A DNA stretch of 64,000 nt from a virus. Below, in pieces: positions 954 through 23,079 of this stretch. A program made the position numbers and the translations under genes. Below the pieces are notes generated by a model. It searched no databases. It saw only the letters and a program-made list of their open reading frames with translations, and was not told the origin of the DNA. The stretch is taken from IMG/VR virus record IMGVR_UViG_3300021142_000007, positions 1 to 64,000 of that record; one strand, 5' to 3'. The stretch's first letter is position 1; each line of letters begins with the position of its first letter.

Positions 954-2846
954 TTATCTCAATTCTGCTACGTTAAATGTAGGTACACCATCAACACGCA
1001 CGTGTCCGTAGAATCTGTTGTTAACAGCCTTCTTAGCGTAACGAGTCATGATACCCTTAACTGGAGCAAAGTTAAATGGATTGTACATTGTTGGAGTCAA
1101 TTGCAATGGCACGTATGGTGCGTAGATGTAACCTGTATCCAATAATGACTTACCTTTGTGACCTACGATAACTGAGTAAGCTGGTGAATAAGGGTCACGG
1201 TATACTTGATAACGACCACCCAAAGTACCAATTCTTTCGATACCCATGTTATATTGGTCTTGCTCTGGGTTAGCATCACTTACGTGGAAGTATTCAAGGT
1301 CATCGAATACAGCTGATATCTCAGAAGATACAACTACGAAGTTAGCACCACCACGAAGAGTTGACTTGTGGATTTGAGCAGACAATTGGTTAACTCTTGT
1401 GATAAGAGTTTGGTTCCAGTCTTTTTGTGTATATGGGCTAGCAGCTGAAGAAGCTTTTCTCCAACCATTGTAATCCCAACGTAATTGCCATGCAGCCAAT
1501 TTACGCAAATCTCTAAGGATTTCACGGTCAATTTCAGCAGCAACTTGTTCTGACAACATAGCTGTCAATTCAGCTTCAGCATCGATGTTGTGGAATGCAC
1601 TAACGTCTTGTGCCAACTCTGGAGACCAAGTGGCTCTTAATTTTCTTTCTTCAACAGCAACTACAACTTCAGCAAGGTTGAAAGATACTTCACCAAGTTC
1701 AGTTTCAAGTTCCAATGAAGAGTATTCAGCCCAAGCAAATGTCATACCGTTTGTAACAGCACTTACTGAGTTTGCAAGACTAGAACTTGTAGCACCAGTT
1801 GTACCTACATAACCATCATAAGTTGATGTACCAGCTTTAGCTACACCAGATGCAGTTGTACCTACTGGGTGACGGAAGTCAAGTTCAAGGTAGATAAGAC
1901 CTTGGTCAGTTACCAAGTTACCACTTGTATTTTGAACGATACCTTTACCATATTGTTGAGTAACTACACGGAAAGGAACTTCTTTGTTAGCTGCGATTAT
2001 TGTGTTACCGTCTGCATCCAAAAGAGCATTTGAAGTAACTACGTGCAATGAAGCCAAGAATGATTCTGTATCCATGTTGTTACCATCTGGACCAGTTAAT
2101 ACTTCACGTCCACTTGAACCAGCACCTCCAGAGAAACCAGAAAGACCAATAATCGCATGTCTTACTGAACCGTCAGTTGCCAATGGCAATATAGTTGCAC
2201 CGTAAGCAGGTGATAGAGTACCATCTGTGTTAAATGTAAATGTAGTGTAAGTTGTTTGGGTTTTGATTGTAAGGGTACCCTTAGAGTTATCAAACATACC
2301 GTCATTGTAGAATATATCATACAAGTTTTTAGCCATGAACTTAGTTACAGGATAAGAATGTGCAGCAGCAGCAACAGGAAGTGCAGCAGCAGTAGCTGAA
2401 CCATTGTGTTCACCGTTAAGACCAGTGTGAGCTGAATAGATAGTACCGTATACATCGCTAGAATCACTAGTTGCATAGTCGTTACCAGCATTACCTAAAC
2501 CGTCTTGACGGCTAGAAGTTTGAGGTACGAAATAGAACAATTTACCGATAGGCATATTCATCGCTTGTACTGATACGATATCATTTGCAAGTAATTTAGA
2601 GAATACACGTCTTACGATAGGGAATACAACTGTTTCGAATGAACCAGATGAAGTTGCCGATGTAGATTCAGTCAACAAAGCAGAAGCTTCGTTTTCATAC
2701 AATTGAGCAATGTTTTCTTTTACATGGCCTTTAAGACCATCAAGGAAACCTAGGGCTTCCCATTTTGCTTGGGTTTCTTGGCGAATCGCTTTCATGTGAT
2801 TCAAACCGATGTTACCCACTTGTCCAGATGTTAATAAATGTGACAT
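954..2846 (-). CDS. Major capsid protein, T4 gp23-like
   Basis: IVSVQAMNMPIGKLF, RKLRATWSPELAQD, DAEAELTAMLSEQVAAEIDREI, YAPYVPL and KGIMTRY motifs. Confidence 0.95.
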   Translation of the reverse strand: MSHLLTSGQVGNIGLNHMKAIRQETQAKWEALGFLDGLKGHVKENIAQLYENEASALLTESTSATSSGSFETVVFPIVRRVFSKLLANDIVSVQAMNMPIGKLFYFVPQTSSRQDGLGNAGNDYATSDSSDVYGTIYSAHTGLNGEHNGSATAAALPVAAAAHSYPVTKFMAKNLYDIFYNDGMFDNSKGTLTIKTQTTYTTFTFNTDGTLSPAYGATILPLATDGSVRHAIIGLSGFSGGAGSSGREVLTGPDGNNMDTESFLASLHVVTSNALLDADGNTIIAANKEVPFRVVTQQYGKGIVQNTSGNLVTDQGLIYLELDFRHPVGTTASGVAKAGTSTYDGYVGTTGATSSSLANSVSAVTNGMTFAWAEYSSLELETELGEVSFNLAEVVVAVEERKLRATWSPELAQDVSAFHNIDAEAELTAMLSEQVAAEIDREILRDLRKLAAWQLRWDYNGWRKASSAASPYTQKDWNQTLITRVNQLSAQIHKSTLRGGANFVVVSSEISAVFDDLEYFHVSDANPEQDQYNMGIERIGTLGGRYQVYRDPYSPAYSVIVGHKGKSLLDTGYIYAPYVPLQLTPTMYNPFNFAPVKGIMTRYAKKAVNNRFYGHVRVDGVPTFNVAELR

Positions 2847-2876
2847 AGTTTTTTTTTATTTTTTTTTTTGTTAGGG

Positions 2877-4894: not shown

Positions 4895-4957
4895 GATAGT
4901 CTGTTATAGATATAAATATATCCCTAGAATAAAAAAGCCCCGATATCGGGGCCTTTG

Positions 4958-6804: not shown

Positions 6805-6844
6805 TTTTGAATTTTATTATAAATATCGTTATTTAACACAAAAA

Positions 6845-10752: not shown

Positions 10753-10826
10753 AGTTTTAACTATAAATATGTAAAACTACGCTAAAACGCCTTTTTTTAA
10801 ATAATAAAGGCCCTTTCGGGCCTTTG

Positions 10827-13114: not shown

Positions 13115-13511
13115 GATATTGTTTATTATAGATTAGTGTTAGGTCTTTTTCATAAAGCTTGTCTGAAACGATTTGTAACGAGTCTCCAAATCTAAAACAT
13201 AGTCTTTTATCTGGATACGCATCATATGCGTTTATGTTCTCCCAAGCCAAGGCTATTACACCATCAACGGCATCCCAAACAGCGAAGGTATCGCTATTTT
13301 GAACCACATCAAGCTTTAGTGATGACTCCAAACGACCAACTTTTTTTATAAATTCGTCATGAGGAGCTTCTGGTCGGCCTGAAGCTGGGAACGTATCCCA
13401 TTCATTACCGTCAATATTTTTGGTCGTATCAGAAAAGATAAACTCATAAAGGTAATTACCTTCATAGTTTTTTCCAATCATATTAACGTATACCAAAAAT
13501 AACTTATCCAT
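13104..13511 (-). CDS. Conserved hypothetical protein
   Basis: 135-aa ORF overlapping both neighbours. Confidence 0.75.
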   Translation of the reverse strand: MDKLFLVYVNMIGKNYEGNYLYEFIFSDTTKNIDGNEWDTFPASGRPEAPHDEFIKKVGRLESSLKLDVVQNSDTFAVWDAVDGVIALAWENINAYDAYPDKRLCFRFGDSLQIVSDKLYEKDLTLIYNKQYHEE

Positions 13512-15130
13512 TACTTACTAGCTTTTGGGTTTGGTTGAACCTTAGGTGTTGGTAAAAATGGCTTATCCTTTCTACTTGGCGTTGCTGGTGCTTCCTTTGG
13601 CTTAGTTGTTGGCTTTACAACTGGTGCAGTTTCGGTATCTCTAAATGTTTCTCTAAGCATATTCTTAATCTTGTTTTTATTTTCAAATATACTATTATTT
13701 TTCGAATTATTCAAGTCCTCTACTATTTTTGATACTGGTTTTCTTGACCACATTCTGCATGACCAATACTTAGGTGTTGTTCTATCCTTGGCTTGAGAAC
13801 ACTTATGTCTCGCTCTGAATGATTTTCTTCTCTCTGGATTATCTCTCTTGATTTCCATGTTAGGGTCACCGAAGTTAACCTTTACAACATTACCAGATTT
13901 ATTTTTAACATAAACCTTGAACTTCTTAACGTCACCTTTAGTAGGCTTACCTAGCTTTACTTCTTTTCCATGATATTCAGCTTCGCTCATAGATATGTTT
14001 TCTACGCTACCGTATTCATCGCTATATCCACCTTGTGTTTCGCCATCATAAACATCCAATTCAGCTTCCAAGAAGTGATATACGTGTTCAATCATTTCTC
14101 TAACCTTAGAAATGTGGTCAATAGCCCAACCATGACCGTTAGCCAATAATCCATCTATTTGTTCGTGATTCATTTCTAGAATTCTACCACTAGCATGATT
14201 AATGGTTTTAAGGTCTTGCCAAAACATGTAGTTATTGGTTTCGCCTTTTGTTTCCATGTTTTCATCAAGCGTACCCTCTATAAAATGATAAACTTGTTCC
14301 ATCGATTCAGCGGCTCTTGCGATGTGGTCCAAAGCCCAAGCATTACCATCTGATAATAAGGTATCAACGTGGTTAAAGCTCATGTGAAGAATTTGACTTG
14401 CATCCTCATGTATCCCTTTCATGTTTGACCAAAACATATAGGTTTGATTTTCATTCATTTGATTTGTTTCTTTTAGGTCCTCTTCTTTAAGACCTTTCCA
14501 AATCTTACCTTTTCTACACTTAACAACAGCACCAGACGCATAAGCAGATGGCCAAACATCATATTTTCTTTTTGCTATGTTTGTGCATCTGTCTTCATCA
14601 AGTATATCGTTTGAACCCTCTTGAAACATATTATTTTTCTTAGGGTCGACAAATAAATTATCCATGTTTTCGTAAATATACAATTCATCCAAGCCTTCTT
14701 CATCAGATGGTTCAGATTCTGGTGTTGGTTCTTTACTAGGTGTTTCATCGCTTTCTGGGGCAACATCTTCATCACCTTGACCAGCTTTCTTGACTTTGCT
14801 TATGATATCTTTTTGGTCTTCAGCATCCATTTCACCAGTATGCGTTGCTGACAATAAAGAGTTAATTGCGAACTTTTCTAGCTCGAAGTCTGGCTGTCCT
14901 TGTTCGTCAGTATATTTTCTTAGGGATTGTCCTAATTTACCTGTAAGTTGTTCTATGAATTTTTTTGGGTCTGATTCTTCATCAGCCTCTACACCAGCAT
15001 CAAATGGCTCGTCATCAAACGGCTTATCATTAGCTGGCGGTGTTTTAGCTTCTGGCTCAGGCATTGGAGCAGCCTCTGGAGCAGCCGCTGGAGTTGGAGC
15101 AGCAGGTTCTGGTGAACCTGCAACTTTCAA
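13511..15130 (-). CDS. Multi-module protein, probably the -1 frameshift extension of 15151-15984
   Basis: Only a TTG start; frame is open through the A10 run; WPSAYASG module, duplicated YMFW module and basic RRKSFRARH module. Confidence 0.75.
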   Translation of the reverse strand: MKVAGSPEPAAPTPAAAPEAAPMPEPEAKTPPANDKPFDDEPFDAGVEADEESDPKKFIEQLTGKLGQSLRKYTDEQGQPDFELEKFAINSLLSATHTGEMDAEDQKDIISKVKKAGQGDEDVAPESDETPSKEPTPESEPSDEEGLDELYIYENMDNLFVDPKKNNMFQEGSNDILDEDRCTNIAKRKYDVWPSAYASGAVVKCRKGKIWKGLKEEDLKETNQMNENQTYMFWSNMKGIHEDASQILHMSFNHVDTLLSDGNAWALDHIARAAESMEQVYHFIEGTLDENMETKGETNNYMFWQDLKTINHASGRILEMNHEQIDGLLANGHGWAIDHISKVREMIEHVYHFLEAELDVYDGETQGGYSDEYGSVENISMSEAEYHGKEVKLGKPTKGDVKKFKVYVKNKSGNVVKVNFGDPNMEIKRDNPERRKSFRARHKCSQAKDRTTPKYWSCRMWSRKPVSKIVEDLNNSKNNSIFENKNKIKNMLRETFRDTETAPVVKPTTKPKEAPATPSRKDKPFLPTPKVQPNPKASK

Positions 15131-15150
15131 CTTATATTTTGTGTCTTCAA

Positions 15151-15984
15151 TTAGACTTTTTTTTTTGAGCTTTCGTTTACGCTATATTCTTTTCCGTCTA
15201 CGTTAAACTTAGACTTACCAGCTTCTTTAGCTTTTTCTAATTCACCAGAAAATTTGTTACCTTCACCTATTTCTTTTTCCATCTTTGAAGCTTCAATCAT
15301 TTCATCGATAGCTTTTTCGTATTCAGTCATGTGTGGTTCTTCTTCCATGTATCCGCATTCAGCCATCCAACCTTCTTCGGTCATAGACTCATCCATACCC
15401 ATTTTCTTCTTAACGTCCATAACGCAAGATTCGTATTTTTCTGAATTTCTACCAACACTAGCTGTGCAAATAGCCCATGGGTTTTTTGCTTTACCTTCTT
15501 CCATCCAAGTCTCTTCCATTGGTCTGTTGTTCTCAAGATTGCCATGACCACTAAAGCCATTACCTTCCATTTGAGAGAATCCACCAGCCATTGGCATAGA
15601 TTCGTTCAATAGGTTATCGTTTAAGAATACATTGATTTCACCTTCGAAGTCATAGGCTTCAGCAAGACTTCTGAACTTAAGATTTAAGTGCTTCAAAGCA
15701 TTTGCATATGAAGGATAAGCTTCAGATTTTTTGTTTTGTAGACCTCCGATATACTTGAAGTCTTCAGCAACCAAATTAGCTGTCTTATCAGCTTTTTTGA
15801 TGTACCATTCGTGGTTTTCTCTTATGATTGCATAAGCTTTTCCATCTGGACCCATCTTGGTTGTTTCAACAACTATCTTAGATTTATTTTCATTGATAGA
15901 TTGTATTCCCATCAATTCTTTCATACGTTCGGTAATCTGGTTACCTTTAAGCCCTAGTGGGTTGATTAATACTTGTTTTTTCAT
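15151..15984 (-). CDS. Putative head-associated protein ending at a slippery A10 site
   Basis: 277 aa; INE/LNE sites; preceded by ATATTTATA. Confidence 0.75.
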   Translation of the reverse strand: MKKQVLINPLGLKGNQITERMKELMGIQSINENKSKIVVETTKMGPDGKAYAIIRENHEWYIKKADKTANLVAEDFKYIGGLQNKKSEAYPSYANALKHLNLKFRSLAEAYDFEGEINVFLNDNLLNESMPMAGGFSQMEGNGFSGHGNLENNRPMEETWMEEGKAKNPWAICTASVGRNSEKYESCVMDVKKKMGMDESMTEEGWMAECGYMEEEPHMTEYEKAIDEMIEASKMEKEIGEGNKFSGELEKAKEAGKSKFNVDGKEYSVNESSKKKV

Positions 15985-16024
15985 CCTAAGTTTTTTTATA
16001 TAAATATAAGCGTTTTATTGAAAA

Positions 16025-16270: not shown

Positions 16271-16333
16271 GTTTATCTTTTTACCTTATAAATATCGCTT
16301 AAAATAAAAAAAGCACCTATTAGGTGCTTATAT

Positions 16334-17809
16334 TTATTGTTTTGTGTAAAGAATCTTTCGACCCACTCCATTGATTACTTCGATATAAAACTTGTATGGT
16401 AATAACTCGTGTTCTTGTATTCCTAATAGATTATAGTATTTCACATCTGTATCATTGGTTATTGATATGATATCAGAATAAGCATACTGGCCGTCTATAT
16501 CCACTTGCTTTAACCTGTAGTAGTTACTTCCTTGTATCGGCAAACCATCTATAAAAGAATACTCCGTTTGACTTGTTGTAGTACCCATTCCCTTAACAAT
16601 CCCTATGCTTGACCAATTTAACGCAGAATCGGCCCTTTCCACCTCAAATCTATCGTTATCTATCTCTGATGCTGTTACCCAGTATAAAACGTTCTTATTG
16701 CCGTATTTTTGCCCGTAAAATGCCGTTAGCTTAACTGGTAGTTCTGTGGCTATCGATAGCGTTCCAGAACTTGAATAAGCAACGCAAGGCGAATTTGTTG
16801 AAGCTATTCTATAACGATAACCGTTTATTCCATGATTTGCTGGATAAATCTTCAAGGTATCGCCACGAGTTGAATAAGGCGAAGCTATCGTTAAGCTAGA
16901 CCAACTTGACCCTCCATTGGTTGAAACCTGCCAAACAAATGGATAGTTTGCGTGAGCTATAAACCAATAAGTTGCGCCAACATGTACCGCAGTAACACTT
17001 GATGGGTTTATACTAATCGTTGGCATGGAATTTATAACCACCGAAAAGGTATCTGTCTTTGACCATACGCTTGTACAGCCAGCCACTACCGAAACCGTTC
17101 TTGCGTAGTATGTTCCAGACGATGAAATTGTTGTTGATACAGATGTGCTAGTTCCTGATGATGTTGTTTCAATATAAGAGTTAGACGGAAGACTTATAAC
17201 ACTTGAAGTACAAGCTGGTGTAGTATAAGTTGGTGTGGGAGAAGATGGTATTAAACATCCAACCAATTTAATATCATCCAATCTAAATTGAGTTCCGTTG
17301 TTAGTACCTAAACGGAATCTTATTCTTAAATTAGATGTTGCTGGAATGGCTCCTGTTGGTGAAACAAGTGTCCAAACGCTTGTTCCACTACCAGTAGCCA
17401 TTGTGTAAGATAAAGCAGTGTATGTTGTTCCATCAGAACTTGTCTCGATTACCATTTCAGAACCATTAGAAGCTATTGTTGACTTCAGTATCCCAAGACT
17501 CAATGCTAGGTTGGTATAGTTTGTTGTATTTATACCACTTATTTGGACATATATACCTAATGAATTGGTGAAGAATATATTACCACCTCCAGAAGCTCCC
17601 GTATAGGTAGATGATGGACTTGTGGTTCTGACATCGGGTGATGTTGCTGAAGCTGTATAGGTTAAACTAGCGTTGTTTTGCCATCCTGTATATGTTGCAG
17701 CAGAGGTTGTGGCTGCTGGATTTCCACAATTTTCGGTGAATATAGTTGTTTGTGCCATAATAAAGAATGGCATAAGAACTAGGATAAGAATTCGTAAGAC
17801 TTTTTTCAT
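16334..17809 (-). CDS. Secreted Ser/Thr-rich protein with Bacteroidota T9SS-cargo-like C-terminus
   Basis: Signal peptide MKKVLRILILVLMPFFIMAQ; LPVKL...WVTASE...FEVER...YYRLKQVDIDG domain; YNLLG...RKILY tail. Confidence 0.75.
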   Translation of the reverse strand: MKKVLRILILVLMPFFIMAQTTIFTENCGNPAATTSAATYTGWQNNASLTYTASATSPDVRTTSPSSTYTGASGGGNIFFTNSLGIYVQISGINTTNYTNLALSLGILKSTIASNGSEMVIETSSDGTTYTALSYTMATGSGTSVWTLVSPTGAIPATSNLRIRFRLGTNNGTQFRLDDIKLVGCLIPSSPTPTYTTPACTSSVISLPSNSYIETTSSGTSTSVSTTISSSGTYYARTVSVVAGCTSVWSKTDTFSVVINSMPTISINPSSVTAVHVGATYWFIAHANYPFVWQVSTNGGSSWSSLTIASPYSTRGDTLKIYPANHGINGYRYRIASTNSPCVAYSSSGTLSIATELPVKLTAFYGQKYGNKNVLYWVTASEIDNDRFEVERADSALNWSSIGIVKGMGTTTSQTEYSFIDGLPIQGSNYYRLKQVDIDGQYAYSDIISITNDTDVKYYNLLGIQEHELLPYKFYIEVINGVGRKILYTKQ

Positions 17810-18047: not shown

Positions 18048-19229
18048 TTAATTACTTAATGGTGCGTTTATCTTAGGATGTGATTGATAATTTTCTATCG
18101 TAAAATCATCAATCTCTATTCCTTTTATTAATGATTCAAAATTTTCGGTAAGATTTCCAATTCCACACTCTCCAGATTCGGTAAGCCAAAATTCTGTGTT
18201 GATGTTTAATTTTGGAAGCGGATATGGTTCTCTACCAATTTGTTCTTTTGCTTGTTCTACATGATTAAGATATAAGTGTGTGTCACCCAAGTTTCCGATT
18301 AGTTCGTCTGGAACCATGTTTGTAATCTTTGCAAGTATCTTTAAAAGTAGGCCATAAGAAGCTATATTGAACGGAAGGCCAAGGAATGTATCAACTGAAC
18401 GCTGGCTCCACATTAAAGAAATTGCTCTGGTTGGAATATTCTTTTCATCTAAACATTCTTTGATTTTTTTTCTTCTAACATTTTTAAAACTTTGAATTTC
18501 TTCATAAATTAGCCTTTGTTCATTTTGAGTAAGAGCGTCCATTCTTTCTTTTTCACTCAATTCTCTTGTATAAACTTGAAAACCATAATGGCAAGGTGGC
18601 AAAACGCAAGTATCAACTTCATCTGGATTCCAAGCCGTAACGAGCATCCTACGGTCATCTGGATTTGTTTTTAACTTGGTTATGAGGTTTTGTATTTGGT
18701 CAATGCCATTAAAATGCACACCGCTTGTTCCGTTGTGGTTTTGGTGCTTATTAGAAACCCTTCCACCCCAGTCTCGCCATTGTGCCCCGTATATCCGACC
18801 CAAACTCCCCCACTTAACAGCAAACTCATCATCAGTTTTGATTTTATTGATGAATTCTTCTTGAGTATATGCTCTATTAGAAGAACCATTCATTCCATTA
18901 ATAACAACATCTTCTTTTACATTATCCTTATTAGAGAACCTGTCTCTATTCTTTAGATAATTAGCAAAGGAATCTCCGTCCCAAATATGACAATTGTTAT
19001 CAACCAAGAACTTAATATTTGTGTCTCCTCTTAAAAACCACAACAATTCTACTACTATTGATTTCCAAGCCATTTTTTTAGTGGTCAAAAGTGGAAATCC
19101 TTCTGACATAGAATGTCTTATTTGTCTTCCGAATACTGAAATGGTTCCCCCATTTCTTGTTTCTTTTTTTGTACCGTTATCAAGAATGTCTTGAAGCAGG
19201 TCTGTGTATTTTTTGTCTAAGTTATTCAT
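18048..19229 (-). CDS. thyA: Thymidylate synthase
   Basis: FPLLTTKK, ELLWFLRG, LPPCH, QRSVD..LGLPFN and GDTHLY motifs; start placed at MNNLDKKY. Confidence 0.95.
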   Translation of the reverse strand: MNNLDKKYTDLLQDILDNGTKKETRNGGTISVFGRQIRHSMSEGFPLLTTKKMAWKSIVVELLWFLRGDTNIKFLVDNNCHIWDGDSFANYLKNRDRFSNKDNVKEDVVINGMNGSSNRAYTQEEFINKIKTDDEFAVKWGSLGRIYGAQWRDWGGRVSNKHQNHNGTSGVHFNGIDQIQNLITKLKTNPDDRRMLVTAWNPDEVDTCVLPPCHYGFQVYTRELSEKERMDALTQNEQRLIYEEIQSFKNVRRKKIKECLDEKNIPTRAISLMWSQRSVDTFLGLPFNIASYGLLLKILAKITNMVPDELIGNLGDTHLYLNHVEQAKEQIGREPYPLPKLNINTEFWLTESGECGIGNLTENFESLIKGIEIDDFTIENYQSHPKINAPLSN

Positions 19230-19527
19230 ATAACCATTTATTTGCGAAGGCCTTATTGTTCTTTGTTTCGATTGCAAACCAGTCTTTTGTTGGTATATCG
19301 TCATATCCTATAAAGGTATTTACGTATTCTGTATATGCCTTATCGATAAGGTCTTCGAGGGTAGGTTCTTTAGCGTCTATTTCATACCAGCCCCCACGCA
19401 AAAAGTACGGGCCATTATCAAGTACTTCGTGCGCTTTTTTGCATAAGTGACATTCATTATCTTCGCTTGAATGAACACAAACGATTCTTTCATGTAGAGA
19501 ATCCCATTTTACGTAAACTCTTTCCAT
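19222..19527 (-). CDS. Hypothetical protein
   Basis: Overlapping ORF in the operon. Confidence 0.6.
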   Translation of the reverse strand: MERVYVKWDSLHERIVCVHSSEDNECHLCKKAHEVLDNGPYFLRGGWYEIDAKEPTLEDLIDKAYTEYVNTFIGYDDIPTKDWFAIETKNNKAFANKWLYE

Positions 19528-20574: not shown

Positions 20575-23079
20575 ATGAATAGAGAAATTTATCCGAAGGT
20601 TAAGATTATAATGTCAGAAGCAATGAAGGAAGCTAAAAACTTCGATGACGTTAAGGTAAGACCAGAACACATAACCTTGTCCATTTTATTGGACAACGAT
20701 AATGAAGCTGTGAGTGTTTTTAATTACATAAATCTAAACAGACTAGACCTTTGCGAAAGAATTTCTGACCATCTCAGAAAAAGTGACCTAACACCTCGTG
20801 TTGGCAATACATCAAAAAGAACGCTTCCGTTTTCAGATGAAACCAAGATAATCATCAAAGGCTTGGATAAAGAATGTGATGAACTAAACGATGCTATGAT
20901 TGATACTACTCATATCATATTATCAATACTAAAAAACAATACGCCTGTGACAGAGACTCTTCTTGAGGTCTATGGGATTGATTATAATAAATTTAAAAAC
21001 GCAACAATTAAAATGAGAGAAGGTTTTAAAAATAATGCTTTTGAGGATGATGATGTCCAAGAACAAGAGCCTTTCAAAAAGAAGCCAAAACAAGGTGAAG
21101 GTAAAACAAAAACACCAGTATTGGATAACTTTTGTAGAGACGTTTCAAAAGCAGTAGAAAAAGGTGAAATCGACCCAGTGGTCGGTAGAAGTGTTGAAAT
21201 CAAAAGAGTTTCACAAATCCTTTCACGTAGAAAGAAAAATAATCCGATTCTAATCGGAGAACCTGGCGTCGGTAAAACCAGTATTGTAGAAGGTCTTGCA
21301 ACGCTTATCAAAGAAGGTGGTGCGCCAAGACCTCTTACCAACAAAAGAATCTTCACACTGGATTTGGCCAGCCTAGTCGCTGGTACCAAGTATCGTGGCC
21401 AGTTTGAAGAAAGAATGAAAGCCGTTCTGGAAGAATGCAAAGCAAACCCAGACATCATTCTTTTTATAGATGAACTTCACACCATCGTAGGTGCTGGTAA
21501 CGCCAGTGGTTCGCTAGATGCATCTAACATATTTAAACCAGCATTGGCTCGTGGCGAAATACAAATCATAGGTGCAACAACCCTTGATGAATATCGTGAA
21601 CACATTGAAAAGGACGGTGCCCTTACAAGACGTTTCCAGCAAGTATTGGTCGAAGAACCAAGTCTTGATGAAACGAAAGAAATCCTTATGAACATCAAGG
21701 AAAAATATGAAAAGCACCATAGGGTAACATATACCCAAGACGCTATTGATGAATGCGTTAAGCTATCAGCGAGATATATCATGGAACGTAGTATGCCAGA
21801 CAAAGCAATAGACGTTATGGATGAAGCTGGAGCAACAACCAATGTTAATCTTGAAAAGCCTGAGAATATCAAACAACTTGAAGCTCAAATCAGAGAAATC
21901 AATGATAGGAAAAAAGAAGTTGTTGAAAAACAAAAATATGAAGAAGCTGCTAAGCTCAGAGACGAAGAGAAAAAGATTAAAGACAAGCTTGAAGCTTCTT
22001 TGAACGAATGGAACAAAAGCCTTGAAGGAAAAACCACCGAAGTAGGTGTTGAGTTGATATCTCAAGTTGTATCCATGATGACTGGTATTCCGCTTACAAA
22101 GATTTCTACCCAAGAAAGCAAACGTCTTATGAACTTGGATAAAGAACTCATGGGCAAAATAATAGGTCAAGATGACGCTGTTGCTAAGGTTGTTAAGGCA
22201 ATCAAACGTAACCGTATAGGTATCAAAGACAAAACCAAGCCTGTCGGTTCGTTTATATTCTTGGGACCTACTGGTGTCGGAAAAACAATGCTTGCTAAGC
22301 TCCTAGCTGAAAACGTATTCGGTGATGCGGATGCTTTGGTAAGAATGGATATGTCTGAATACATGGAAAAACACAGCGTATCTAGGATGATTGGTAGCCC
22401 ACCAGGTTACGTGGGATATGAACAAGGTGGTCAACTTACAGAAAAGGTTCGTAGAAAGCCACACTGCGTTATATTGTTTGATGAAATCGAGAAGGCACAT
22501 GAAGACGTGTTTAACCTATTGCTTCAATTATTGGACGAAGGACAATTAACCGATGGCTTGGGACGTAAGGTGAACTTCAGAAACTCATTGATTATCATGA
22601 CATCTAACATCGGTGTTAAAGAAGTCAATTCATTCGGAAAGTCGCTTGGTTTTGAAACAGCCGCTTCAATCGTAAACGAAGAAAACAAAGCTCGTGATAT
22701 CATAGAAAAGGCCTTGAAGAAGAAATTCAGACCAGAATTCCTTAACCGTATCGATGAAGCCATCATCTTTAGAAGCCTAACCGAAGAGGATATCCACAAA
22801 ATCATCAGTCTTGAGGTTGGTAAGCTTGAAAAACGCTTGAACGAAATGAAGTTCAAGCTAAAGATTTCCCAAGATGCTATTGAATTCTTGGCTAGACAAG
22901 GATATGACGAAAACTACGGTGCCCGTCCTCTAGCCAGAGCTATCCAACACTATGTTGAAGATGCGGTGGCCGATGAAATCCTTAATGGTGAAATATCAGA
23001 GGGGGATACGTTAAACATAGGGTTTAACAAAGAAAAAGATGAAATCACTATCAAATACTCCAAACAAAAAGCCAAATAA
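20575..23079 (+). CDS. clpC: ClpC-like AAA+ chaperone ATPase
   Basis: Clp N-domain; two AAA modules ([16 protein letters not shown]); UVR-like YEEAAKLRD; LGF loop; PPGYVGY. Confidence 0.93.

Follow-up and report, generated by a model that had tools for sequence, protein, structure and literature searches.

The locus considered here raises a simple question: How does a phage express a long, intact reading frame that opens in the wrong register, at the very point where a shorter gene ends in a run of ten adenines? It lies on the minus strand of the window, by which we mean the whole stretch of 64,000 nucleotides that was analysed (positions 1 to 64,000 of IMG/VR virus record IMGVR_UViG_3300021142_000007, from a genome of 135,399 bp), and belongs to a lineage of widespread, uncultured freshwater T4-like phages. 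An earlier reading, made from the sequence alone, had proposed a programmed -1 frameshift at the adenine run (A10), which would join an ORF of 277 amino acids (ORF277) to one of 539 amino acids (ORF539). We consider that A10 is a site of programmed recoding giving products of 277 and 824 amino acids, the shift being made mainly by slippage of RNA polymerase, and assign to this explanation as a whole a probability of roughly 0.6. The arguments for it, and those for the ribosome and for other ways of accounting for the two frames, are presented below.

The recoding site and its frame relation among relatives

Direct reading of the minus strand gives the codons AGC TCA AAA AAA AAA GTC TAA at the 3' end of ORF277 (table 1), matching from TCA onwards what the sequence-only reading had reported. 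The -1 frame is open from position 15181 and encodes K-K-K-S-L-I-E-D-T-K-Y-K-L-K-V-A-G-S-P-E-P, the same peptide that had been written down before as the continuation into ORF539. Five runs of at least ten A or T occur in the whole genome; the A10 under discussion is the only one inside a coding sequence, while those at 2859, 77017 and 133742 lie just 5' of gene starts. TTG is indeed the sole start listed for ORF539 (13511-15130), as had been remarked, but what it encodes is the leucine of the conserved motif K-Y-K-L-K; it is not a start codon, and the two ORFs of this family should be joined in annotation.

Table 1. Features of the recoding locus and its transcription unit, in window coordinates
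Feature	Position	Strand	Basis or detail
Terminator-like hairpin then T run, upstream boundary of the unit	16311-16329	-	Hairpin and T run
ORF277, frame-0 short isoform, 277 aa, ATG start	15151-15984	-	ORF list; conserved N-domain
-1 reading frame, 548 codons past the run; listed as ORF539 from TTG	13511-15181	-	ORF list and relatives
A10 run, putative slip site of the recoding	15157-15166	-	Sequence; A9-A12 at the homologous place in 96/96 run-bearing relatives
Frame-0 stop TAA, one codon past the run	15151-15153	-	Sequence
K-Y-K-L-K motif codons in the -1 frame, including TTG at 15128-15130	15125-15139	-	Motif carried by 90/94 -1 contigs
RNA hairpin	15092-15132	-	Core stem GCAGGTTC / GAACCTGC at 15114-15121 and 15102-15109, loop ACCA
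Two helical repeats of the predicted long isoform (-1 part residues 232-370), DinB/YfiT-like as a lead only	14048-14464	-	pLDDT 85-93
Terminator-like hairpin, downstream boundary of the unit, just before TerL	10806-10825	-	Hairpin

The frame of the conserved downstream core was scored against that of the conserved N-domain in 105 distinct related contigs. The core lies in the -1 frame in 94 of them and in the +1 frame in none, and all 94 carry a run of A9 to A12 in the overlap; two further contigs have an A11 run and are in frame, and the nine members of a distant sister clade are all in frame and have no run. Homologues uniformly in frame, which the earlier reading had named as the mark of a homopolymer error, are thus not what the family contains. 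The run-bearing set comprises 42 clusters at 80% identity of the N-domain and 17 at 70%. Because about 100 diverged relatives keep the arrangement, the frameshift appears to be genuine and programmed, and the comparison strongly supports the view that the site is a conserved site of programmed recoding. The length of the run in the window itself, A10 rather than A11, had also been put forward for checking: it is spanned without an indel, and as A10, by three bridging assemblies from three studies, one of which represents a strain with 17 substitutions. Contig X1, which extends just 16 nt beyond the run on one side and may come from the source sample itself, was left out of this count.

The architecture around the run is equally constant. 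In all 45 junctions that were aligned, frame 0 stops 1-8 codons past the run and the +1 frame 1-7 codons past it, and the -1 frame continues without a stop for 321-930 codons. It opens within the run itself in nine of these junctions, so that in them the shift is possible only there. The ORF277 half and the -1 half are both intact, conserved ORFs. The in-frame A11 relatives (L301-L303) come from three metagenomes; two of them, L301 and L302, have the remaining two frames closed after 1 and 3 codons. According to a quick-search tree, these relatives nest within the run-bearing clade (98% support); the two that were counted form one small clade, and the 94 out-of-frame contigs are scattered across the remainder of the tree.

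Possible slippage in transcription, on the ribosome or in DNA

What distinguishes the candidate mechanisms is first of all the length of the run, which is A10 in 82 of the 96 run-bearing contigs, A9 in nine, A11 in four and A12 in one, hence always at least nine. Bacterial RNA polymerase slips efficiently on nine A or T, a property that the account in PMC5009743 describes as being used by Thermus dnaX, and two-ORF dnaX genes with A10 are assigned to transcriptional slippage in PMC3711429. The threshold of at least nine for a slippery homopolymer is taken from what PMC5009743 reports. By this measure the locus has an intracoding homopolymer of sufficient length, A10 in the window and A9-A12 in 96/96 relatives, with the other frames closed nearby in 45/45 junctions as well as in L301 and L302. 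The run begins at codon position 3, 1 or 2 in 33, 9 and 3 of the 45 junctions, respectively; it is therefore kept in three codon registers, and it is kept also where no shift is needed, namely in the in-frame A11 relatives. AAA is the usual lysine codon in these genes (79%; 3152 AAA vs 826 AAG), so three successive AAA codons are not very improbable in a single lineage, and what gives the argument from the run its weight is consequently how many lineages keep it, together with the flanking A. Slippage of RNA polymerase fits better than a ribosomal shift because the run has at least nine adenines, is found in three registers and is retained by the in-frame A11 relatives, and because no structure lies at the distance expected of a stimulator. 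From these sequence features we infer that the slip occurs in transcription instead of on the ribosome.

The proposed sequence of events would be as follows. Standard decoding of the DNA would yield the 277-aa protein, with its stop one codon past A10. Since the run matches the RNA-DNA hybrid of 9-10 bp in length, the nascent RNA could realign on the template run, and a fraction of the transcripts would acquire an additional A. From these transcripts normal translation would produce the 824-aa form, and transcripts with other run lengths would end within a few codons, since both other frames are closed.

The same two products would be obtained if -1 frameshifting on the ribosome were the main mechanism, the tRNA-Lys in the P and A sites moving back by one base on A_AAA_AAA, and this we regard as a possible explanation, though clearly a less probable one. 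Of the two heptamers that had been singled out by the sequence-only reading, A_AAA_AAA alone is in register, because the frame-0 codons are TCA AAA AAA AAA GTC; A_AAA_AAG, the efficient motif in Escherichia coli, is out of register. The in-register heptamer, which is contained in any run of at least nine, and the -1 relation of 94/94 out-of-frame contigs are the elements of a ribosomal cassette that the locus does possess. A ribosomal slippery site, however, requires only 7 nt, and the heptamer leaves unaccounted for both the nine or more adenines in 96/96 contigs and the A11 of in-frame relatives in which the other frames are closed. The ribosomal mechanism proposed in the earlier reading thus keeps one of its two heptamers and its -1 direction, while the long run, the three registers, the A11 retention and the lack of a stimulator structure speak against it.

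The last of these points deserves to be considered together with the hairpin that is found further downstream. Stimulators of frameshifting are usually spaced by 5-9 nt from the slippery sequence, and no structure begins within a few nucleotides of the heptamer: the region from run +1 to +50 gives no signal when compared with codon-resampled controls (mean z -0.5, with 8/96 contigs below -2 and 40/96 above 0). A selected hairpin is nevertheless present, and in favour of the ribosome it can be said that it is confined to the run-bearing clade and absent in the nine run-less relatives. In the window its MFE is -23.6 kcal/mol (z -5.49), and 0/200 dinucleotide shuffles are equally stable; in the family, judged against synonymous-codon resampling, the mean z is -2.09, with 84/90 values below 0 and 52/90 at p<=0.05. 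Its start lies 26-269 nt past the run, at 26-49 nt in 73 of 90 cases, and hence not at the usual spacing of a stimulator.

Transcriptional slippage, too, leaves the co-occurrence of hairpin and run unaccounted for, an observation that goes against a view of slippage only. Part of the shift, or even all of it, could be due to the ribosome, because the window has A_AAA_AAA in register and -1 shifting on this heptamer is proven for certain IS elements, which are among the clusters with this heptamer reported in PMC4066793.

Slippage might alternatively occur in DNA replication, toggling the run between A10 (off, or short form) and A11 (long form) in phage populations, so that the long form would come from A11 genomes only. 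Both states are indeed natural, with A10 out of frame in most relatives and A11 in frame in L301-L303, and poly-A/T runs are described in PMC3711429 as slippery for DNA polymerase too; yet we hold such phase variation to be highly improbable. The two states appear unmixed among close relatives, the pair of in-frame A11 contigs forming one small clade against 94 contigs out of frame, and the contigs of three studies are all A10, though contigs hide rare variants. Moreover, a simple on/off switch would not be expected to have both other frames closed when the genome carries A11.

Even less credible is the notion of two separate genes, in which the downstream ORF would start by itself, either at the TTG of position 15130 or by re-initiation past the frame-0 stop, the -1 offset reflecting translational coupling. 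This TTG lies 23 nt past the stop in the window, and coupled genes that overlap or adjoin each other are often in -1 offset. However, neither ATG nor GTG nor TTG occurs in the -1 frame ahead of the conserved block in 76 of 90 contigs, and the leucine codon of K-Y-K-L-K is TTG in 39 of the 90, the other 51 having TTA (22), CTG (15), CTA (10), CTT (3) or ATA (1). The peptide between the run and this codon is conserved, and single-ORF relatives (P0003, P0010, P0028, P0001, P0009 and P0012-16) carry the junction K-K-K-S/R/I/T-L... in one frame, the same peptide as is encoded by the -1 frame of the window. Relatives of the P0012 group have an A11 run in their DNA; for P0001 a search for the DNA of the fused gene found none, the best identities being 72% among viral contigs and 68% among metagenome contigs, and for the KKK-bearing fusions P0001, P0003, P0009, P0010, P0018 and P0028 the state of the run lies outside the sampled DNA.

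Finally, a homopolymer error of sequencing or assembly, or a decaying pseudogene, is close to refuted, for even if homopolymers are error-prone and some relatives encode the joined protein in a single ORF, many assemblies contribute to the 94 distinct contigs whose runs of 9-12 are always followed by the -1 frame and never by the +1 frame, independent assemblies agree on A10, and both halves are intact and conserved.

Predicted products and gene context

That one site may give a short isoform of 277 aa and a long one of about 820 aa, as first proposed, is strongly supported by the comparison with relatives; both isoforms are presumably made, in a ratio that is likewise presumed. ORF277 consists of a conserved N-domain (residues 1-125), with 30 invariant columns across 45 aligned relatives, followed by variable modules and the ending S-K-K-K-V-stop; the AlphaFold2 model has pLDDT values of 72-89 at roughly residues 14-112. 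The predicted long isoform of 824 aa combines 276 N-terminal residues in common with the short form and a 548-residue extension of linkers and modules. In the model of this -1 part, 234/548 residues have pLDDT below 50, and it appears to be mostly linker with few compact modules. Two helical repeats stand out among these modules, with an internal sequence repeat and histidines in both copies. They align with 8f5v_B in VIA-align at a Z of 9.4 (rmsd 4.1 Å, 133 aligned residues), a value below the caution line of the tool for helical bundles, and many DinB-family rows are found among the top 25 matches. The DinB/YfiT superfamily is characterised by a four-helix bundle that arose by internal duplication and by a conserved metal-binding His triad; Pfam gives no DinB/YfiT match for the repeats.

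Searches for function returned little beyond uncharacterised proteins. Pfam has no match for ORF277, ORF539 or five neighbours, and PHROGs only families of unknown function for short modules of ORF539. In tblastn against annotated phages, ORF277 has no match at E 1e-3, and ORF539 matches 44 phage records by short modules only, which span no more than 28% of its length. Foldseek against PDB gives no match at E<=0.001 either for the ORF277 model or for that of the -1 part; the ORF277 model retrieves two uncharacterised phage proteins in BFVD and reaches a best Z of 5.1 in VIA wide, and the N-domain finds unnamed viral clusters only in the protein atlas, with a best score of 0.79.

As to its surroundings, the site lies between thyA and TerL, its neighbours being thyA, an 81-aa ORF, three further ORFs and TerL, in a gene order that is conserved. 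ORF277 and the -1 ORF sit in a separate unit upstream of the terminase gene, bounded by terminator-like hairpins and comprising the 81-aa ORF, ORF277/-1 ORF and the ORFs of 135, 332 and 430 aa. The earlier reading had called the two ORFs head-region ORFs; nothing that was found marks them as head proteins. The suggestion that the shift would operate outside the usual tail-chaperone context has held up well: the neighbours are thyA and TerL and not the tail tube and tape measure genes that flank G/GT, the products of 277 and 824 aa are not of chaperone size, and neither PHROGs nor Pfam yields a chaperone match.

Promoter scans were also made. The T4 late-promoter consensus TATAAATA has 19 matches vs 10 expected, but those 5' of minus-strand genes are on the plus strand and hence do not represent the T4 motif in its written orientation. 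A scan for sigma-70-like promoters gave 22 matches vs 25.2 in shuffles, thus no excess.

Significance and relation to known systems

Annotated programmed frameshifts of phages are nearly all of the tail-chaperone kind, and here a well-conserved site lies in a different gene, one that current gene callers split into two hypothetical proteins; in the SEA-PHAGES data given in PMC10885494, tail chaperones make up 2397 of the 2476 joined genes. The family offers a natural series for telling slippage of polymerase from that of ribosomes, with A9-A12 out of frame, A11 in frame and a sister clade devoid of the run, and its downstream hairpin fits neither textbook model. A bolder interpretation, which we advance tentatively and consider rather unlikely as it stands, is that this may be the first family-wide programmed transcriptional slippage in a dsDNA phage, in which A10 would set the ratio of short to long form, toggling between A10 and A11 would tune it, and the hairpin would be a new accessory element. 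Under this interpretation the long form would be in the minority with a genomic A10 and in the majority with A11, and the hairpin, which would have co-evolved with the run and lies 26-49 nt downstream, would exert its effect beyond the slip site and not as a frameshift stimulator, for instance by deciding the fate of transcripts with ribosomes halted at the frame-0 stop.

Among known systems, the -1 frameshifting of E. coli dnaX and of IS elements (on A_AAA_AAG or A_AAA_AAA) resembles the present case in its slippery sequence of lysine codons, its -1 direction and its two products. There, a stimulator follows the slippery sequence within a few nucleotides, and dnaX has in addition an SD-like element upstream of it, whereas here there is no structure signal past the run, all runs exceed the heptamer, and A_AAA_AAG is out of register. 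In Shigella spa13, mxiE and related genes of type III secretion, slippage on an A/T run adds a C-terminal part from another frame to the product of a short ORF, as proposed here, and the extension is present in 25-30% of the spa13 product (PMC5009743); these, however, are genes of bacterial plasmids, for which the account in PMC5009743 describes no comparable breadth of conservation. Phage lambda G/GT, as presented in the same source, is likewise a conserved programmed -1 site of tailed phages with a short and a C-terminally extended product, but it differs from ours in that the present site lies between thyA and TerL, has predicted products of 277 and 824 aa with no PHROGs or Pfam homology, and uses an A9-A12 homopolymer as the putative slip sequence. 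The methyltransferase gene of the T4-like Campylobacter phage CPt10 is broken by a poly-A run, and its authors suggest a rescue by transcriptional slippage; it is presented in PMC2853527 as a frameshift mutation in a single gene of one phage, and the account shows no family-wide conservation. With dnaX of Thermus thermophilus (9 A) and its two-ORF counterparts that carry A10 (Antonov et al. 2013; PMC5009743, PMC3711429), finally, the phage family contrasts in its unrelated protein, its phage context, a slippage that is predicted from sequence and a long form that would be the slipped product in most members. It has in common with them, as they are described in these papers, an intracoding run of 9-10 A, the closure of both non-target frames nearby and a shared N-terminal part of the products; and the layouts with the run in frame and out of frame that dnaX-type genes display have their matching states here in A11 and A10, respectively.

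The A run and the frame downstream of it

Across the A10 run that precedes the stop codon of ORF277, the 277-aa product of frame 0, the -1 frame (open from 15181) reads K-K-K-S-L-I-E-D-T-K-Y-K-L-K and continues into ORF539. The genome, a single contig of 135,399 bp with 35.9% G+C, contains five A or T runs of at least 10, and this one alone lies within coding sequence. The first sample came from two viral-contig scans with 97 loci in all, 63 of them with tblastn matches to both ORFs; requiring an ORF277 match starting within residue 40 and an ORF539 match within residue 60, which removes loci with internal modules only, and deduplicating on an identical 120-nt junction left 45 junctions, the window included, at 39 to 96% amino acid identity to the window. 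At all 45 an A run lies just upstream of the frame-0 stop (A9 in five, A10 in 37, A11 in two and A12 in one) and the second ORF is in -1; after the run, frame 0 closes in 1-8 codons and +1 in 1-7, and -1 stays open for 321-930 codons.

After deduplication on 200 nt of the DNA encoding the N-domain (the conserved residues 1-125 of ORF277), the full sample numbered 105 distinct contigs, each classed according to the frame that its conserved downstream core takes relative to this domain. The sequence-only reading had set its programmed frameshift against the possibilities that reads support A11 or that homologs are uniformly in frame, and neither is what we found: 94 of the 105 are in -1 (A9 in nine, A10 in 82, A11 in two, A12 in one), none in +1, two in frame with A11 and nine in frame without a run. 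Contigs of three studies also span the run without an indel, extending 31 nt or more beyond it on either side; one of these is a strain carrying 17 substitutions plus, elsewhere, a 15-nt insertion. L303, the third in-frame A11 contig, stands outside the count of 105, probably having been filtered out. At identity levels of 90, 80 and 70%, the N-domains of the 96 run-bearing contigs group into 66, 42 and 17 clusters, respectively. Random homopolymer error cannot yield the pattern seen across the 105 contigs together with the bridging in three studies. Extra A8-A9 runs occur within or near the same gene region in three related contigs, L305 (3105-3169), L306 (3095-3159) and L307 (2105-2179).

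The predicted long protein and its modules

No ATG, GTG or TTG lies between the opening of the -1 frame and the conserved block in 76 of the 90 -1 contigs having the K-Y-K-L-K motif, the other 14 carrying an internal conserved Met or Leu within a longer insert. The TTG once taken for the start of ORF539 turns out to be the Leu codon of this motif, and is TTG in only 39 of the 90. The -1 frame begins within the run at nine of the 45 junctions, which leaves the run as the sole possible shift site there. Searching for longer proteins with the N-domain returned 38 matches: P0003, P0010 and P0028 are single ORFs that read K-K-K-S-L...T-K-Y-K-L-K, the peptide of the window's -1 frame, in one frame; variants of this junction peptide occur in the single ORFs P0001, P0009, P0012-P0016 and P0018; P0002, P0005-P0008 and P0011 are long frame-0 forms still ending K-K-K-x-stop; and P0019-P0033 belong to a distant group fused without K-K-K.

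L301-L303, the in-frame contigs, come from three metagenomes and show about 80% identity to P0012. With A11 at the homologous place, they read L-K-K-K-R-L-T-E in one frame, and their nearest out-of-frame relatives have A10; thus, their genomic A11 corresponds to A10 plus one A. A quick maximum-likelihood tree built on 125 columns of the N-domain, midpoint-rooted for drawing only, separates the no-run clade from the run-bearing clade by a branch of 100% support and nests the A11 pair in the latter with 98% support. Hence, the run has been retained even without the need for a shift.

The K-Y-K-L-K codons are followed immediately by a hairpin (MFE -23.6 kcal/mol, z -5.49, 0 of 200 shuffles as stable), with compensatory synonymous changes in some relatives: GCAGGTTC/GAACCTGC in the window, GCTGGTTC/GAACCAGC in contig L006 and GCTGGCTC/GAGCCAGC in contig L010. 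Against a control in which synonymous codons were resampled and the peptide held constant, its stability is above expectation in the run-bearing clade (mean z -2.09 over 90 contigs, of which 84 lie below 0 and 52 reach p<=0.05) and not above expectation in the nine no-run relatives (z -1.09 to +1.05, none at p<=0.05). Its start varies from 26 to 269 nt after the run (26-49 nt in 73 of 90), so the hairpin goes with the K-Y-K-L-K motif, not with the slip site. Such a spacing does not fit a classical stimulator.

The -1 part is modelled mostly as low-confidence linker with a few modules; its two helical repeats (residues 232-370) have a predicted likeness to the DinB/YfiT bundle (Z 9.4), a lead only. 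Residues 377-461 of ORF539 form a small module (phrog_7595, E 1.5e-12) which recurs at 42-76% identity in phages of Pelagibacter, Synechococcus, Roseobacter, Flavobacterium and Methylophilales and in Nitrosopumilaceae spindle-shaped viruses; to judge from these matches, it is a very mobile module of aquatic viruses. The model of the N-domain has pLDDT 72-89 over approximately residues 14-112 (helix, three-stranded sheet, long helix), and structure searches returned no convincing neighbour for it. Between the N-domain and the run, the alignment of the ORF277 family is highly variable, with frame-0 lengths of 182-603 aa and swapping of small modules, including one with N-P-W-A-I-C-T-A-S and EF-hand-like D-x-N-K-N-G-K-L-D repeats; module shuffling thus flanks the recoding site on both sides.

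The conserved unit and its phage lineage

Among the - strand genes of the window are those of a T4-like head and packaging module, namely the Gp23-type capsid protein, S77 prohead protease, Gp20-type portal and TerL. ORF277 and the -1 ORF lie upstream of TerL in a unit flanked by terminator-like hairpins, together with ORFs of 81, 135, 332 and 430 aa. Gene order is kept among the 43 classified relatives with 4-kb flanks, where the 81-aa ORF is found in 39, the 135-aa ORF in 38, the 430-aa ORF in 34, TerL in 29, and thyA and the 332-aa ORF in 28 each. Because TerL is at most about 31% identical to that of any annotated phage and ORF277 has no match among 50,697 phage records, the lineage is uncultured; metagenomes containing the stretch are labelled mostly freshwater.

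Other genes of the window deserve mention. A 491-aa ORF with a hydrophobic N-terminus and no Pfam or PHROG match is present in only two of the 43 relatives, which makes it a variable insert separating thyA from the conserved unit; towards the C-terminus it may resemble the sorting domains of type IX secretion in Bacteroidota, a possible hint of the host. In thymidylate synthase (418 aa) the 266-position Pfam model is stretched over residues 31-416, implying an insertion of roughly 120 residues, and in the Gp23-type protein (630 aa) the Pfam match starts only at residue 345, hence a large N-terminal extension; T9 and T11 runs sit immediately upstream of the start codon of the latter. The phage also encodes a full-length ClpB/ClpA-like double AAA+ protein (834 aa; AAA_2, AAA_lid_9, ClpB_D2-small, Clp_N). 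Five - strand genes (those of ORF277, the 81-aa ORF, TerL, a 262-aa ORF and the prohead protease) have the word ATATTTATA 10-20 nt before their ATG. This word, the T4 late consensus TATAAATA in reverse, may be a late-promoter or translation-start signal of the lineage.

Positions of the features discussed, in window coordinates
Feature	Position	Strand	Remark
Codons AGC TCA AAA AAA AAA GTC TAA	A10 15157-15166; stop 15151-15153	-	sequence
ORF277	15151-15984	-	ATG start; ends at stop after A10 run
ORF539	13511-15130	-	-1 frame; TTG is sole start codon
phrog_7595 module	13748-14002	-	
Hairpin	15132-15092		
Terminator-like hairpins	16329-16311; 10825-10806		
ATATTTATA	15999-16007; 16287-16295; 10762-10770; 6818-6826; 4911-4919	read on -	word occurrence
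491-aa ORF	16334-17809	-	
Thymidylate synthase	18048-19304	-	
Gp23-type capsid protein	954-2846	-	
T9 and T11 runs	2849-2869		A-rich on - strand
ClpB/ClpA-like protein	20575-23079	+	

Slippage by polymerase or ribosome

Which machinery slips on the run? Whether polymerase slips and adds one A or the ribosome slips by -1, the outcome would be the same 824-aa protein, and therefore sequence alone proves neither. RNA-polymerase slippage would be the main route with a probability of about 0.6. The run is never shorter than 9, which favours polymerase over ribosome: according to PMC5009743, 9 is both the length of the RNA-DNA hybrid and the run length at which bacterial RNA polymerase slips efficiently. 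The same preference follows from the varying codon register of the run, from its persistence in the in-frame relatives, where the other two frames close (after 1 codon and 3 codons in L301 and L302), and from the lack of a structure signal in the 50 nt downstream of it (mean z -0.5 versus synonymous-codon resampling, 40 of 96 above 0). Of the two heptamers proposed in the sequence-only reading, A_AAA_AAG is out of register with the frame-0 codons TCA AAA AAA AAA GTC, again favouring polymerase, whereas A_AAA_AAA is in register and, in the portion of PMC4066793 dealing with it, a proven ribosomal site in some IS elements. Counted against the polymerase reading, too, is the fact that AAA is the common Lys codon here (79%). 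On balance, we regard ribosomal -1 slippage as the less likely main route; the two processes may also act together.

Full-text literature searches, supplements aside, turned up no account of this family or of any conserved poly-A site for recoding in T4-like phages. Closest is a methyltransferase gene of Campylobacter phage CPt10, a single case of a broken gene (PMC2853527). Known, then, is the kind of event; new are the gene family, the phage lineage and the natural series of A10, A11 and no run. In retaining the run with both other frames closed, the in-frame relatives resemble Thermus dnaX, to whose mechanism Antonov et al. (in the relevant part of PMC3711429) also ascribe two-ORF dnaX genes with A10.
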